A stretch of 64,000 nucleotides of DNA from Flavobacteriaceae bacterium (lineage in GTDB: Bacteria > Bacteroidota > Bacteroidia > Flavobacteriales > Flavobacteriaceae), in contig JAHEET010000001.1 in NCBI GenBank assembly GCA_024640565.1, forward strand, positions 308,882 to 372,881, in the 5' to 3' direction. Position numbers and translations under genes: made by a program. Of this stretch, positions 5,055 to 56,993 are shown in pieces. Within the stretch, counting starts at the first letter, position 1; each line of letters starts with the position of its first letter. The notes beneath the pieces were generated by a model. That model searched no databases, was not told the origin of the DNA, and worked only from the letters and a program-made list of their open reading frames with translations.

Positions 5055-6446
5055 ATGAAACCCTATATTGCCTTATTTTCAGCATGCATTTTTTTAACTG
5101 TTTTTGTTAGTTGTAACAAAGACGTAAAAAGCAACACTACTTATTTTGGAGGTAAAATAATGAATCCAAAAAGCAATCATGTCATTTTATATGCGATGGA
5201 CAAAGTAATTGATACTTTTCCAATCAATGCTGAAAATAAATTTGGTGGCATCTTAGATACGATTCAAGAGGGACTTTATTATTTTGTTCATGGAAACGAA
5301 AATCAATTTTTATACATCGAACCTAAAGACAGTATAATGCTAAGCTTAAATACTTGGGATTTTGATGAGTCGTTGGTTTTTTCAGGAATTGGTGCTGAAC
5401 GAAATAATGTTTTAATTGATTGTTTTTTACAATTTGAAAAAGATGAAAAAACTTTTTACAGATACAATTCATTAAAACCAATTCCATTTAAGGCAAAAGT
5501 AGACTCTATCATTTTACTTCGTGGAAAAACCCATGAGGCTTATGCGAAAAGACATCCAACAGAAACTCCAAAATTTAAGGAACTATTAAAAATAGCGCTT
5601 ACTTACCCGGTTTATGCTCGAATAGAAAGTTATCCCATCTCTCATGCAAAAAAATTAAAATTAACGCATTTTCCAACCCTACCTGTATCATTTTATGAAT
5701 ATCGAAAAGACGTTGATATAAATAGAGATGCTTTAATGTATTACAAACCCTACAGTAAATACATTACAAATTATTTATACAATGTAACTTATGCCAAGCG
5801 GCATGCTCCCATGCAAAATAATTTCTCTTCTAATTTTACGGTAGATCTTTTAAATACAATTGACGCAAAAGTAAGCTCCGAAACGTTTAAAAATGCATTT
5901 TTAAAACAAACAGTAATCAGTCATTTTTATAAAAAATCGACGTGTGAAATCAATCCGAAAGAATTTGATGTCTTTTTTGGTTTGAGTTCAAATGAAAAAG
6001 ACAAAAATTTAGTCCGGAGGCTATTGAAAGACAACCAAGCGATCCATAAGGATCATGAAATGGAAAACTTCTACATCCATGATTTTACCAATGCAAGCTA
6101 TCCCATTCAAGATGTTATTCAGGGTAAAAATACACTCTTGTTTTTTTGGAGTCCTAAATATGTATCAAAATCTTATGTGGGGGCACGCATCAATTATTTG
6201 TCAAACAAATATCCAAATATTCAATTTTTAACCTTTAAAATCGATGGAGACAGTTCTGATCAAATCAATGACTTGGATATAAAAAAACAATTCTTTATAC
6301 CCCCTACCAGCAGTGCAAATTCTTTTTTGACAAGTAAAATGACACGTTCTATGCTTGTCAATAAAAAAGGAATTTTGACCAACGGATTCGCCTCCATAAC
6401 TTCTAGAAACATCTACCGGCAATTGGACAGTTTGAATACTAATTAA
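5055..6446 (+). CDS. Lipoprotein with degenerate C-terminal thioredoxin-like (TlpA-like) domain
   Basis: Lipobox FVSC; C-terminal ...GKNTLLFFWS... resembles a TlpA fold lacking CxxC. Confidence 0.6.
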   Translation: MKPYIALFSACIFLTVFVSCNKDVKSNTTYFGGKIMNPKSNHVILYAMDKVIDTFPINAENKFGGILDTIQEGLYYFVHGNENQFLYIEPKDSIMLSLNTWDFDESLVFSGIGAERNNVLIDCFLQFEKDEKTFYRYNSLKPIPFKAKVDSIILLRGKTHEAYAKRHPTETPKFKELLKIALTYPVYARIESYPISHAKKLKLTHFPTLPVSFYEYRKDVDINRDALMYYKPYSKYITNYLYNVTYAKRHAPMQNNFSSNFTVDLLNTIDAKVSSETFKNAFLKQTVISHFYKKSTCEINPKEFDVFFGLSSNEKDKNLVRRLLKDNQAIHKDHEMENFYIHDFTNASYPIQDVIQGKNTLLFFWSPKYVSKSYVGARINYLSNKYPNIQFLTFKIDGDSSDQINDLDIKKQFFIPPTSSANSFLTSKMTRSMLVNKKGILTNGFASITSRNIYRQLDSLNTN

Positions 6447-6484
6447 TTTATAGCCTTTAACAAGCCTACCTTGATTATTTAACG

Positions 6485-6492
6485 TACCTTTG
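6485..6492 (+). promoter_or_regulatory. Bacteroidetes -7 promoter element upstream of deaD
   Basis: TACCTTTG matches TAnnTTTG; about 95 nt before the ATG. Confidence 0.5.
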
Positions 6493-6587
6493 CCCGATTT
6501 TAAATTTGGGAACAAACCCCTATAAAATCGAGTCGAAATATAAATACGGTTTGCAGGTGGGCGTCTGTGAATCAACAAAAACACAGT

Positions 6588-8411
6588 ATGTCAACATTTT
6601 TAGAGTTAGGTTTAAAAGCACCTATCAACAAAGCATTAACAGCTTTAGGCTATGAAAAGCCAACTGTTATTCAAGAAAAAGCAATCCCGCAAATCATTGC
6701 TTCTACAGACGATTTAAAAGCATTTGCACAAACAGGTACCGGTAAAACCGCTGCTTTTAGTTTACCAATACTAGAACTTTTAGATGAAAAGAACAGCAAT
6801 GTTCAAGCAATCATCCTTTCTCCAACTAGAGAACTTGCTGTACAAATTGGAAACAATATTAAAGATTTTTGCAAATACTTACCCGATGTTAAGGTAACTA
6901 CCGTTTATGGGGGTTCTAGCATGGAAGAACAAATTAGATCTTTAAAAAAAGGTTCGCAAATTGTCGTTGGTACGCCGGGTAGAACCGTCGATTTAATAAA
7001 AAGAAGAGCTTTAAAATTAGGTAACGTTCAATGGTTGGTCTTAGATGAAGCTGATGAAATGTTAAACATGGGGTTCAAAGAAGAGCTGGATAAAGTCTTA
7101 GAAGCAACTCCAGAAACAAAGCAAACCTTATTATTTTCTGCAACCTTTCCAAGAGAAGTGGAAGCAATTGCTAGAAACTACATGACCAAACCTGTAGAAA
7201 TTACCTCAGGTGAAAAAAATACAGGTTCAGAGAATGTAAGCCATGAATATTATTCTGTTACAGAAAGAACTCGCTACCCTGCTTTAAAAAGAATTGCAGA
7301 CTTAAATCCAGATATTTATGCAATTATCTTTTGTAGAACGCGAAGAGAAACCCAAGAAGTTGCAGACAATCTAATAAGAGATGGTTATAGTGCCGATTCT
7401 TTGCATGGAGATTTATCCCAAGGACAACGTGATTCTGTCATGGGGAAATTTAGAAAGAAAACCATTAAAATACTCGTAGCGACAGATGTTGCTGCTCGTG
7501 GATTGGATGTTACGGAATTGACACATGTATTGAACCACAAATTACCAGACCAGATTGAGAACTACACGCACAGAAGTGGTAGAACCGGTAGGGCTGGAAA
7601 CAAAGGAATTTCAATTGTTTTAGTCAATGGAAAAGAGAAAGGGAAATTACGTCAGATCGAACGAATCATTAAAAAGAAATTTATAGAAGGAAAAGTTCCT
7701 ACGGGTAAAGAAATCATTAAAAACCAGTTAATCAATTTAATTGACAAGGTTCAAAATACGGAAGTAAATGAATCTGAAATGGAAGCATTCTTACCGAGTA
7801 TTTTCGAAAAATTAGCAGATTTAGATCGTGAGGAATTGATTAAGAAATTTGTTTCTTTAGAATTCAATACCATGCTCAAGTATTATGAAAATTCGAAAGA
7901 TTTAAACAATTTATCTTCCAAAGACAATTCTAGAGCAAGAGCAAATGATGAGAACATGACGCGATTCTTTATCAACATTGGACGAAAAGACAACTTAAAC
8001 CCTGGAAAACTAATAGGCTTAATCAATGAGCAAAATATTGGCGACAAAGTAGAAATTGGTGCAATTGATATTTTAGATACTTTTTCTTTCTTTGAAATTG
8101 ATAAAAATTACGAAGACGCAACCTTAGCCGCATTTTTAGACAACCAACCCGACTTTGATGGTCGCTCGGTAAATGTAGAAATTACCAAAAAAGAACGTGG
8201 TGGCGGTCGAAGAAGTGGTGGAGACCGAAGGTCTTTTGGGAATAAAAGAGAAGGTGGTTTTGGCCGAAAAAGAAACTCAGATGGCGGTTCTTCAAGAAGA
8301 AGTAGTAATTCTGGTAGAGGATCAAACAGAACTTCGGACAGACCAGACAGAGCTAGCAGAAGTGCTAGCGATAGAGGTCCAGGCGGTTTCGGAAGAAGAC
8401 ATAGAAACTAA
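6588..8411 (+). CDS. deaD: DEAD-box RNA helicase DeaD/CsdA-like with DbpA RNA-binding domain and RG/S-rich tail
   Basis: AQTGTGKT, PTRELA, DEAD, SAT, HRSGRTGRAG motifs; RFFINIG DbpA domain. Confidence 0.9.
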   Translation: MSTFLELGLKAPINKALTALGYEKPTVIQEKAIPQIIASTDDLKAFAQTGTGKTAAFSLPILELLDEKNSNVQAIILSPTRELAVQIGNNIKDFCKYLPDVKVTTVYGGSSMEEQIRSLKKGSQIVVGTPGRTVDLIKRRALKLGNVQWLVLDEADEMLNMGFKEELDKVLEATPETKQTLLFSATFPREVEAIARNYMTKPVEITSGEKNTGSENVSHEYYSVTERTRYPALKRIADLNPDIYAIIFCRTRRETQEVADNLIRDGYSADSLHGDLSQGQRDSVMGKFRKKTIKILVATDVAARGLDVTELTHVLNHKLPDQIENYTHRSGRTGRAGNKGISIVLVNGKEKGKLRQIERIIKKKFIEGKVPTGKEIIKNQLINLIDKVQNTEVNESEMEAFLPSIFEKLADLDREELIKKFVSLEFNTMLKYYENSKDLNNLSSKDNSRARANDENMTRFFINIGRKDNLNPGKLIGLINEQNIGDKVEIGAIDILDTFSFFEIDKNYEDATLAAFLDNQPDFDGRSVNVEITKKERGGGRRSGGDRRSFGNKREGGFGRKRNSDGGSSRRSSNSGRGSNRTSDRPDRASRSASDRGPGGFGRRHRN

Positions 8412-9418: not shown

Positions 9419-9530
9419 TAAGCACCCCCCCTTCTTCCCTCCCGGATTATGCTTTAGTAGCACCTTTACAATCAACAACATACCTGTTAATAGTTGCCAA
9501 AATCAACGGGTTTTGGTGGTCCTAAAAAAA

Positions 9531-9580
9531 CCACTTATTCCCAAATAACCACCACTTATTCCAAAAATATACCCACTTAT
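9531..9580 (+). repeat. Three direct repeats CCACTTAT with 21-bp period (putative LytTR-type operator)
   Basis: CCACTTAT starts at 9531, 9552 and 9573. Confidence 0.75.
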
Positions 9581-9760
9581 TTATTTGCATACCAAAAAAA
9601 TATTTTTTTAACTTAAGTTTATAGGATCAATCTTTTGTACAACTGATAAAAAGTGGTGTTTTCATGAGCCCAAATTGGAATACGAAAGATTCTAGAATGG
9701 AAAAAAGCCAGATACAGTATTTTGAAAAGCATAGGCTAAAAACAACTATAAATAAAAACA

Positions 9761-10309
9761 GTGAATATCTATCAGAGTTGGTGTATTAAAAAAGCTAAAA
9801 TAAAAGCAAACAGACTTTTTAAGTTCTATCACACTAAAGATTATATTTTAGATATAGGATCGGGCAACTGTGCATTAAATTTATTGACTAAAAAAGCTGG
9901 ATTTGATATTCTAGGATTGGATATTGTTTATAAATCAGCCTTTCATGAAATTAAGCCAATAATATACAACGGTGGAAAACTCCCCTTTAAAGAGAATGAA
10001 TTTGACATCGTTCAATTAATTACGGTTTTACACCATATAAAAGCCTCAGAAGAAACTTTAAAAGAGGCGATAAGAGTAGGAAAAAAAATTCTTGTAATGG
10101 AAGATAATTATACCACTAGGCTTCAAAAGTATGTTACTTTCATAGCTGACAGTATCAACAATTGGGAATTTAAAGGGCATCCGCATACCAATAAAACTGA
10201 CGTAGGTTGGAAACAAGTTTTTAAGGAACATAAACTAAAAATTGAAGATGTAAATTACTATAAATTTTTGTTTTTTTTTAAACAAGTAACTTATCTATTA
10301 ACTAAATAA
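9761..10309 (+). CDS. Class I SAM-dependent methyltransferase
   Basis: ILDIGSG motif I, FDIV, VLHH; GTG start; very AT-rich. Confidence 0.85.
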   Translation: MNIYQSWCIKKAKIKANRLFKFYHTKDYILDIGSGNCALNLLTKKAGFDILGLDIVYKSAFHEIKPIIYNGGKLPFKENEFDIVQLITVLHHIKASEETLKEAIRVGKKILVMEDNYTTRLQKYVTFIADSINNWEFKGHPHTNKTDVGWKQVFKEHKLKIEDVNYYKFLFFFKQVTYLLTK

Positions 10310-10319
10310 TATAAAAATT

Positions 10320-10490
10320 ATGAAAAAAATTATTTACATCTATTTTACAATAGTCATTTCAATATCAATTTATTTAATATGGTTACTACCATTGGAAAAA
10401 AAATATTATAGTTTATTATTTGTATTAGTCTTTATATTGTCAATTTTACCAAAACTTATAATTGGGTTTAAAAAAAACCAAAAACTTTGA
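10320..10490 (+). CDS. 56-aa two-TM membrane protein (absent from ORF track)
   Basis: Hand translation MKKIIYIYFTIVISISIYLIWLLPLEKKYYSLLFVLVFILSILPKLIIGFKKNQKL; A-rich upstream; starts 10 nt after the methyltransferase stop. Confidence 0.6.
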   Translation: MKKIIYIYFTIVISISIYLIWLLPLEKKYYSLLFVLVFILSILPKLIIGFKKNQKL

Positions 10491-10505
10491 AAATAAAAAT
10501 TTAAA

Positions 10506-10640
10506 GACATTAACGGCTACACTTAATTGCTTAGATCTGTGCTACTATAGAAAAATCTCTGATTTTCCCAACTTGGTTTTGTACTTAAAAAGTTAAGTGC
10601 TTAATTGTTGCAACTATTCATAGACGAGACCGTTGTAGAT
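10506..10640 (+). repeat. ~135-bp imperfect palindromic repeat, attC-like
   Basis: AACGG(10512-16)/CCGTT(10630-34), CTA/TAG with ACGAGA bulge, TAATTGC/GCAACTA, inner AAAATC-TCT-GATTTT; resembles a repeat I recall downstream of accessory ORFs in Flavobacteriaceae. Confidence 0.6.
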
Positions 10641-10780
10641 AATTAAAAATTGGCTATAAATTAGAGATATTAATTAAAATAAATGGGAGCTGCAAGTGAT
10701 ATTATTAATTCAAACCCGCTCCGCAAAGTCTACCGACTTTACGGCACATAAAAACCTAAGACACACCAAAAAGCTAAAAA

Positions 10781-10808
10781 AAAAAGAGAAGCGGATGCTT
10801 CTCTTTTT
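10781..10808. terminator. Bidirectional intrinsic terminator downstream of guaB
   Basis: AAAAAGAGAAGC-GGAT-GCTTCTCTTTTT. Confidence 0.85.
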
Positions 10809-10829
10809 ACTATAAAAACTCGTTTATTT

Positions 10830-12305
10830 TTATCTTCTGCTATAGTTTGGTGCTTCTTTGGTAATGGCAACATCATGTGGATGGCTTTCATTAATACCGC
10901 TGGCAGTAATTCTTACAAACTTTCCACTTTCTTGCAAAGTAGCAATGTCTTTCGCACCACAGTAACCCATTCCAGCACGTAATCCACCTATGAACTGGTG
11001 AATGCTTTCGTCCAAATTTCCTTTGTAAGGAACCCTTCCTACGATGCCTTCTGGTACTAATTTTTTAATATCAGCTTCAACATCTTGGAAATAACGGTCC
11101 TTAGAACCTTGCTTCATGGCTTCAACAGAGCCCATTCCACGATAGGATTTAAATTTTCTTCCCTCATAAATGATTGTTTCTCCAGGAGACTCTTTGGTAC
11201 CTGCCAAAAGAGATCCCAACATTACAGAATCTGCACCGGCAGCAATGGCTTTGGGAATATCCCCTGTATAACGAATCCCTCCATCGGCAATAACTGGAAC
11301 GCCAGTTCCTTTAATGGCAGCAGCCACTTCTAAAACGGCAGAAAATTGTGGAAAACCAACTCCTGCTACTACTCTCGTAGTACAAATAGATCCCGGTCCA
11401 ATACCAACTTTAACAGCATCGGCGCCTGCTTCTACTAAATATTTGGCAGCTTCGGCAGTAGCAATATTTCCAACCACCACATCCAAATTCGGAAACTTCG
11501 CTTTCACCGCTTTTAAAACCATGACCACGCCTTTGGTATGTCCATGGGCTGTATCTATGATCACAGCATCTACACCGGATTTTACCAAAGCTTCAGCTCT
11601 ATCAACCGCATCTGCGGTAACCCCCAATGCCGCAGCCACTCGCAAACGCCCAAATGCATCTTTATTGGCAATTGGTTTTTGAGTCACTTTTGTAATGTCT
11701 CTAAAGGTAATAAGCCCTTTTAGAATGTACTGATCATCTACAATCAGTAATTTTTCAATCTTATTTTTTTGAAGAATTTTTTCAGCATCTTTTAAAGAAG
11801 TACCTTCAGATGCAGTAATCAAGTTTTCCGTTGTCATTACTTCAACAATCGGTCTTTGATCGTCGTGCTCGAAACGCAAATCTCTGTTGGTTACAATTCC
11901 TTGTAAAGTGCCATTTTCATCAACAATCGGGATTCCCCCAATTCGGTGTTCTTTCATGTATGCTTTTGCGTCAAAAACAGTGGCCGATAAAGGCAAGGTA
12001 ACAGGATCTAAAATCATGCCCGATTCGGCACGCTTTACACGTCTAACCTCTTCCGCTTGTTGTGCAATGGTCATGTTTTTGTGCAAAACTCCAATCCCCC
12101 CTTCTCTTGCAATCGCAATAGCCATCGCGGCTTCTGTAACCGTATCCATGGCTGCAGAAACTATAGGAACATTAATGGTAATGTTTCTCGTAAATTTTGT
12201 TTGAATAATTACCTCTCTAGGAAGTACATCTGAAAAGGCGGGTACTAATAAGACGTCGTCATATGTGAGTCCTTCGCCTACTATTTTATCGTTGTGTGCT
12301 GTCAT
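10830..12305 (-). CDS. guaB: IMP dehydrogenase
   Basis: [14 protein letters not shown] pair, catalytic [17 protein letters not shown]. Confidence 0.97.
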
Positions 12306-12503
12306 GTTGCAATTAAAGTATAATTGCAAGCAAATTTACAACTATTTATTGGGTTTTTACTAATAATTAGACCTAAGGTTTGCCCAAAGATTTTTTTAGA
12401 GCTGAACGCGCGTTGAAATTCCTTTTTTCTTGTAATTTTTACATATTTGAACAACTATTATTAATTTAATATACTGATTAGTAATGTTTTAAAAATATTA
12501 TTC

Positions 12504-56867: not shown

Positions 56868-56888
56868 TACTCCTAATTTATAGCTGGT

Positions 56889-56962
56889 GCCCGCGCTAAG
56901 GATGGACGTGGAAATCCTTTTTTGGGAGCGGTCCAAAAAAGATTGCAGCCACAGCCTGACCA
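56889..56962 (+). ncRNA. Probable Flavo-1 RNA motif / repeat
   Basis: GGAT...GTGGAAATCCTTTTTT-(hairpin)-AAAAAAGATTGCAGC..CAGCCTGACC matches my recollection of Flavo-1. Confidence 0.55.
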
Positions 56963-56993
56963 AGCATTTGGGCTTGGGAGCGCCCAAAAAAAA

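Follow-up and report, generated by a model that had tools for sequence, protein, structure and literature searches.

A probable relic of a cassette-associated recombination site beside guaB, and a candidate integron-like gene-capture system in marine Bacteroidota

Features of the locus

We analyzed a 64,000-nucleotide stretch of a Flavobacteriaceae genome (hereafter, the window), in which an element at 10505-10641 on the plus strand lies in a 339-bp gap between a small block of accessory genes and the convergent gene guaB. The features of the locus are as follows.

9761..10309, plus strand: accessory gene for a SAM-dependent methyltransferase (Pfam PF08241, 3.2e-9)
10320..10490, plus strand: small ORF of 56 aa, hydrophobic, directly 5' of the site (from the ORF list)
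10505..10641, plus strand: probable orphan, decayed attC-like site (family R1, 133 positions; cmsearch; homologous copies at the same locus in G053 and G141)
10505..10514, plus strand: degenerate R'' region, in which the R'' triplet position (10509-10511) reads ATT and the AAC at 10512-10514 is the 3-nt spacer
10515..10530, plus strand: 5' arm of the main stem (L''-like), GGCTACACTTAATTGC, partner of 10610-10625
10550..10567, plus strand: terminal hairpin 1, GAAAAATC-TCT-GATTTTC, read from the sequence
10581..10600, plus strand: terminal hairpin 2, GTACTTAA-AAAG-TTAAGTGC, with a G.T pair on the plus strand, read from the sequence
10610..10625, plus strand: 3' arm of the main stem (L'-like), GCAACTATTCATAGAC, partner of 10515-10530
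10631..10634, plus strand: invariant CGTT, R' triplet and putative crossover point (CGTT in 145-146 of 146 distinct family rows)
10781..10808, no strand assigned: bidirectional terminator hairpin with a 12-bp stem, serving guaB and the plus-strand genes, outside the element
10830..12329, minus strand: guaB (IMP dehydrogenase; Pfam PF00478, 1.1e-160), a conserved core gene and the boundary of the variable locus

The family covariance model, R1, spanned the element fully (cmsearch, 109.3 bits, E 2.8e-21, model positions 1-133). The coordinates 10505..10641 include 7 nt past GTT, which in arrays belong to the next cassette. The extent given in the preliminary description was accurate, as the model matched 10505-10640 end to end, and the two terminal hairpins that it named are present at 10550-10567 and 10581-10600. 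Its bounds, AAC and GTT, are both there (10512-10514 and 10632-10634), and AACGG/CCGTT pairing between them is possible, but this AAC occupies the spacer position and the true R'' triplet reads ATT. The long imperfect hairpin that it read from the single sequence did not hold up: RNA folding of the element gave z values of -0.12 (plus strand) and +0.19 (minus strand) against 200 dinucleotide shuffles, which is not above chance, and the minimum free energy with DNA parameters was -8.4 / -8.5 kcal/mol, compared with -20 to -25 kcal/mol for intact family members. In the cmsearch alignment, 10 of the 14 Watson-Crick pairs of the main stem were kept and 4 were broken, with both family-invariant A.C oppositions and the GTT present.

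Repeat family and its folded structure

BLAST of the gap against the window's own 2.28-Mb, 99.7%-complete genome gave no second copy, and the family was therefore recognized only through relatives and the covariance model. BLAST against 40 relatives returned matches of 70-74% identity, with several matches in a genome, frequently located on short contigs or at the ends of contigs. The aligned copies defined a sharply bounded unit of ~133 nt, whose RNAalifold consensus is a long stem closing two hairpins. Searches with the covariance model placed the R1 unit in 114 of 121 genomes of the window's genus, Polaribacter, with up to at least 27 copies per genome, and, in a phylum-wide sample of 301 genomes, in 42 from 22 genera; phylum-level matches outside the class Bacteroidia came mostly from Balneolaceae. 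An exact 26-nt core was found in at least 120 contigs, which belonged to many Flavobacteriaceae genera, Cytophagales, Saprospiraceae, Crocinitomicaceae, Weeksellaceae and Bacteroidales MAGs.

The fold is supported by covariation. Among 146 distinct copies, 24 of 32 pairs changed on both sides, a score that none of 500 shuffles reached and that lay above all slid controls, and 89% of cells were paired, compared with 79% in the shuffles. For terminal hairpin 1, all 8 pairs of family helices 2-3 changed on both sides, with 93-94% of cells paired.

The main stem carries three invariant A.C oppositions (columns 8/271, 17/259 and 22/251), whose neighbouring pairs covary freely. On the bottom strand, these oppositions would be G.T wobbles. 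No conserved bulged extrahelical bases were found in the family alignment. With DNA parameters, the bottom strand was the more stable one in 238 of 245 reconstituted sites (-25.0 versus -20.4 kcal/mol), whereas hybrid sites, as they stand in arrays, reached -20.8 kcal/mol on that strand. By analogy, the A.C / G.T strand asymmetry might do the work of the extrahelical bases in attC sites. At four pairs of hairpin 2, on the other hand, the family had 238 G.T against 1 A.C on the top strand, indicating that this helix folds on the top strand only; since this asymmetry is opposite to that of the main stem, the two strands fold differently. Retention of hairpin 2 on the top strand only fits a pure bottom-strand model poorly and could reflect an RNA role.

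Cassette arrays in relatives

In 10 regions from relatives, 278 copies of the repeat lay on one strand and 1 on the other. The largest array, at G017:C1:2956000-3060000, extends over more than 100 kb and holds 121 repeats. Repeat-to-repeat distances had a median of 742 bp (interquartile range 494-1211), and array spacing was about 0.45-1.5 kb. In a cassette unit, the ORF comes first and the repeat after it: among units of 520 bp or more in which the longest ORF took up at least 60% of the insert, 102 ORFs pointed toward the repeat and 2 away. Units below 520 bp were mostly without a convincing ORF. The preliminary description had stated that close relatives of the element follow many small accessory ORFs in Flavobacteriaceae, and the R1 searches together with ORF orientation confirmed this.

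The cargo was diverse, with 133 cassette ORFs matching 89 different Pfam families. These included HigB, ParD, a HaeIII restriction endonuclease and C5 methylase, erythromycin esterase, a beta-lactamase fold, GNAT and LRR proteins, and transposases. As a separate observation, the G017 array contains many units of ~430-500 bp without a convincing ORF, several of them in 3-11 identical copies.

Position of the crossover

The AAC triplet was present at 270 of the 278 array sites and the GTT triplet at 275. We compared the 8 nt 5' of AAC at each site (i) with the 8 nt 3' of GTT at other sites. Mean contiguous pairing was 6.17 nt when the partner was the upstream site (i-1), reaching at least 5 nt in 90% of cases, compared with 1.38 nt for the same site, 1.19 nt for the downstream site (i+1) and 1.06 nt for random pairs. 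The 7-nt stretch 5' of AAC at a given site is complementary to the 7 nt that follow GTT at the site upstream of it, and the R' consensus is GTT-R-B-V-N-N-N-N-A. This cross-boundary pairing is the integron rule, by which the bases 3' of G/TT (the slash marking the exchange point) belong to the next cassette.

The second line of evidence comes from 29 pairs of identical cassettes that stand in different neighbourhoods. Their identity breakpoints fell inside CGTT, with identity running from the C or G of the upstream CGTT to the second T, or 1-2 bases further, of the cassette's own CGTT, which places the crossover within the invariant CGTT. Two independent computations, of pairing and of breakpoints, thus show the repeat units to be apparent units of site-specific cassette exchange.

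Array-head recombinase and attI-like junction

Array-bearing genomes encoded a tyrosine recombinase of 360-400 aa with a two-piece match to the integron-integrase model. The gene heads the arrays, in the same orientation, in six genomes (G070, G072, G017, G041, G059 and G097). None of 12 genomes had a TIGR02249 match above the 265-bit cut-off; the array-head recombinase scored 213.6 bits on that model, 226 bits on NF040815 (XerA / 'integron integrase', cut-off 220), 195 bits on XerD and 193 bits on XerC. Aligned with VchIntIA (2A3V), it matched in two blocks separated by 20 aa, compared with 62 aa at this place in IntI, which means that the IntI-specific additional domain is absent. The catalytic residues (R, K, H, R, H, Y) were all conserved, and the nearest solved structures were archaeal XerA proteins. 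The Flavobacteriaceae recombinase has an extra N-terminal beta-alpha domain of ~90 aa. When the predicted fold (mean pLDDT 79) was compared with the PDB, only the Xer/IntI core was matched, and the N-terminal domain gave no informative match.

Integron integrases have been defined by their IntI-specific insertion (Messier & Roy 2001, cited in PMC4889954), the additional domain near patch III is regarded as necessary for and diagnostic of these enzymes (PMC4889954), and according to Cury et al. a recombinase close to attC sites is not an IntI when it is without intI_Cterm (PMC4889954). Because the array-head recombinase lacks the insertion, it is not an integron integrase by the definition of the field.

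In G072, G017, G059 and G041, an exact 10-nt partner of the R'' of the first detected cassette lay 28-235 nt 3' of the stop codon of the recombinase gene, and in G097 the partner near the recombinase matched with one mismatch. The context common to these attI-like junctions was TATCC...TATAAA...TATATAA(A)C-N-A/GTT.

In the phylum sample, a homologue of the recombinase (E <= 1e-60) was found in 32 of the 42 genomes with the repeat and in 80 of the 259 without it, and in 18 genomes of this sample, besides the six named above, the recombinase lay within 15 kb of repeats. The Balneolaceae homologue has 295 aa and no N-terminal domain, and its gene points away from the first cassette, as in the layout of classical integrons. 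One example is G271 (a Balneola MAG; 5931-7902), where the 295-aa homologue is divergent to a cassette ending in a 143-bit R1 copy. Homologues with 45-55% identity also occurred elsewhere in the FCB group, in MAGs of Ignavibacteria, Calditrichota and Marinimicrobia.

The window copy and its surroundings

Co-oriented cassette arrays, an integron feature, were found in relatives but not in the window's own genome (G000), where the covariance model detected only three lone copies. Two of these had mutated core triplets. In copy 2, at G000:C13:209887-210020 on the minus strand, the R'' triplet position is AAA and the R' triplet is TTT, a complementary double change, and copy 3 has GAT in place of GTT. 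No array-type recombinase was found in this genome at E <= 1e-60, and a search with the integron-integrase model was likewise empty, so the lack of an integrase observed in the preliminary description holds for the whole genome.

In G053, the closest relative (about 92% identical), 13 extra nucleotides give a canonical R'', CCAAC-AAC-GGCTAC. Comparison of the two sequences makes it likely that the window lost its R'' by a deletion between AACGGCTAC repeats. The window copy is most likely a degraded, inactive fossil site and not an intact one, and its own effect would then be the ordinary one of a dead site. Between G000 and G053, however, the small ORF is 97.1% identical and the element 98.5% identical outside the 13-nt indel, compared with 90.6% for guaB and 91-93% for the upstream genes. 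This higher likeness of the small ORF and the site than of their flanks suggests later exchange or selection; it is not expected of a neutral fossil and counts against simple neutral decay. Contigs from four riverine and marine metagenome runs had no substitutions within the element and held the window's arrangement only, with no excision, empty-site form or joints, although contigs hide rare variants.

The segment between a 294-aa ORF and guaB varied among relatives as follows.

G043: 197 bp only (empty)
G053: without the methyltransferase; small ORF and site present, with a different upstream segment
G141: a segment of 4.1 kb of other DNA, with a different repeat copy at its end
G046: 2.1 kb, including a YefM-YoeB pair

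The window and G053 have the small ORF plus the site in common as one unit. The right flank, GTTGTAGATAATTAAAAA, is shaped like the beginning of a cassette (A at +8) and is common to the window, G053 and G141, although the repeat copy of G141 differs. The methyltransferase gene was absent at this locus in G053, G141 and G043, and was found in G108 at an unrelated locus without repeats. The idea that the methyltransferase and the small ORF form a single cassette is weakened by the presence of the ORF and site without the methyltransferase in G053 and by the repeat-free copy in G108; the methyltransferase looks like a later replacement. For a left cassette end pairing with the window R'' (GTTAATGTCT, GTTGGTAGCC and variants), searches upstream in the window and G053 gave chance-level matches only, such as GTTAATAG at 9486.

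Interpretation and alternative explanations

The element at 10505-10641 is, with good probability, a stranded and decaying copy of a cassette-associated recombination site that belongs to an integron-analogous system of marine Bacteroidota. The preliminary description had regarded it as a possible solitary site of a poorly described cassette-recombination system, to be checked by arrays in related genomes, a covariance model and a tyrosine recombinase next to arrays. The co-oriented arrays, the covariation and the array-head recombinase were all found in relatives and support this interpretation, with two corrections: the copy itself has turned out to be a relic and the enzyme not to be an integron integrase.

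In relatives, a mobile cassette consists of one co-oriented ORF, or sometimes none, followed by a site of ~133 nt with a 10-bp R box (7 variable nt and AAC, pairing with GTT and 7 nt), a covarying 14-bp stem with invariant A.C oppositions, and two terminal hairpins. Given exchange within CGTT, a cassette starts with TT and 7 nt whose pairing with its own R'' requires the circular form. Arrays begin at an attI-like junction 3' of the Xer/IntI-related tyrosine recombinase that lacks the IntI insertion. We infer that this recombinase would cut and join a folded single strand, the bottom strand being the likelier substrate because it was computed to be more stable, and would excise cassettes as circles and insert them at the attI-like site. 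The window site would most likely represent an old insertion into the variable gap beside guaB, inherited together with the 56-aa ORF.

An ordinary integron attC, left as a lone site or a CALIN remnant and served by a canonical integron integrase, would account for the AAC...GTT R boxes, the GTT crossover, the cassette arrays and the attI-like junction, all of which obey integron rules, and the score of the recombinase on TIGR02249 is in keeping with it. This explanation is improbable in view of the enzyme: no TIGR02249 match in the 12 array-bearing genomes exceeds the cut-off, and the array-head recombinase lacks the IntI-specific domain and is best matched by archaeal XerA. The sites also disagree with it: R1 sites are conserved in sequence across orders, which canonical attC sites are not, and have invariant A.C oppositions in place of bulged extrahelical bases. 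IntegronFinder 2.0 mentions complete integrons in Bacteroidetes proper only for Salinibacter ruber (PMC9024848).

A structured RNA or 3'-UTR element (a stabilizer, terminator or sRNA), repeated after accessory genes and without a function in recombination, seems to us just as improbable. The position of the repeat at the 3' end of co-oriented ORFs, the G.U pairs of hairpin 2 kept on the sense strand only and the slightly better conservation of the window copy than of its flanks would all suit such an element. Yet it leaves unexplained the cross-boundary complementarity, the CGTT breakpoints and the arrays anchored at a recombinase with a matching junction, and the more stable strand is the bottom strand of the DNA. 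Moreover, a search of Rfam 15 over 9500-11500 (E <= 1) gave no match overlapping the element, and the window has a separate canonical terminator downstream. A miniature transposable element or insertion-sequence end is the least credible of the three. The frequent position of copies on short contigs or contig ends in draft assemblies resembles that of repeated mobile DNA; no transposase is associated with them, however, the units are regular ORF-repeat units, the halves of the supposed inverted repeat belong to different neighbouring units, and the window's genome has only three degenerate copies. Identity with a MITE or IS end, named in the preliminary description as what would refute its reading, is ruled out in practice by the strict one-strand arrays (278 versus 1), the cross-boundary pairing and the CGTT breakpoints, and no transposon signature was seen.

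Comparison with known systems and implications

The superintegron of Vibrio cholerae is a sedentary chromosomal integron with VCR attC sites of ~125 nt. Like such integrons, the Bacteroidota arrays are large and one-stranded, with short, putatively mostly promoterless cassettes that each end in an imperfect palindrome of ~130 nt. Shared features also include R''/R' boxes with AAC/GTT and crossover within GTT, a cassette R box reconstituted in the circular form only, repeats that are homogeneous in any one lineage, a varied cargo of accessory, toxin-antitoxin and defence genes, and a tyrosine recombinase with an attI-type junction at the array head. In contrast to sedentary chromosomal integrons, the Bacteroidota recombinase is without the IntI-specific insertion, is nearest to archaeal XerA and has a novel N-terminal domain of ~90 aa in Flavobacteriaceae; the site sequence is conserved across orders, and strand asymmetry would lie in invariant A.C / G.T oppositions and not in bulged bases. 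The Flavobacteriaceae recombinase gene also departs from classical integrons in being co-oriented with the array, with the attI-like site 3' of the gene, whereas the 295-aa Balneolaceae homologue is divergent from the array, as in classical integrons.

The window copy resembles the CALIN and lone attC categories of IntegronFinder in being a cassette-type site in a recombinase-free genome. These categories are defined by the canonical attC covariance model, whereas the window site, now without its R'' triplet, was assigned here by R1 to another sequence family. A likeness to Xer/dif and pdif modules lies in the recombinase, which is Xer-like in size and sequence (XerA NF040815, above its cut-off). 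Those modules have dif-like duplex sites of ~28 bp, often in alternating orientation, whereas each Bacteroidota site is a folded palindrome of 133 nt, in direct orientation only, with its crossover at GTT.

In the literature on integrons and attC in Flavobacteriaceae, Polaribacter and Bacteroidota, on integron-like tyrosine recombinases and on cassette arrays, we found no description of the R1 family, and the Bacteroidota cassette system is apparently undescribed. Integron surveys that rest on the IntI-domain definition have reported almost none in Bacteroidetes. To judge from its sequences, the system would work like a sedentary chromosomal integron while failing the defining integrase test. 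We lean slightly toward a broader reading, in which marine Bacteroidota share a widespread gene-capture system with arrays of more than 100 cassettes, sites of ~133 nt, an XerA-like recombinase without the IntI domain, strand choice through A.C/G.T oppositions and, in Flavobacteriaceae, a downstream attI-like site; tools keyed to IntI would not call complete integrons in it.

If this is true, integron-type single-strand cassette recombination has evolved, or persists, outside the IntI clade. If the arrays work as implied, a major marine phylum owns large banks of cassettes that carry genes for toxin-antitoxin and restriction-modification systems, esterases and beta-lactamase-fold proteins, folded-DNA cassette sites are processed by tyrosine recombinases of another branch, and a whole class of gene-capture platforms has been missed by integron search tools. 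The window copy would illustrate the fixation of such cassettes beside core genes.

Other features of the window and related loci

The only Rfam match of the window at gathering thresholds was a Flavo-1 RNA at 56878-56965 on the plus strand (52.3 bits, gathering score 42). Just ahead of the guaB terminator, at ~10720-10750, lies a short hairpin, CCGCAAAGTC-TACC-GACTTTACGG. The equivalent locus of G046 has three copies of this ~40-nt hairpin motif, and a gene unit precedes each of them, in one case the YefM-YoeB pair. The motif may represent a second small repeat or recombination-site family.

In the gap 3' of the 294-aa ORF, at ~9528-9590, the window contains three direct repeats, CCACTTATT(C/T). 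These repeats, possible protein-binding sites, are kept at the equivalent locus of G043 and G046, and a similar stretch occurs at G000:C2:44024-44128. Positions 9609-9616, where the variable segment has its edge, read AACTTAAG. A few array sites in G070 and G072 start with AAC-TTAAG-CCGTAT and not with the usual R''-spacer, and they have the string AACTTAAG in common with this part of the window.
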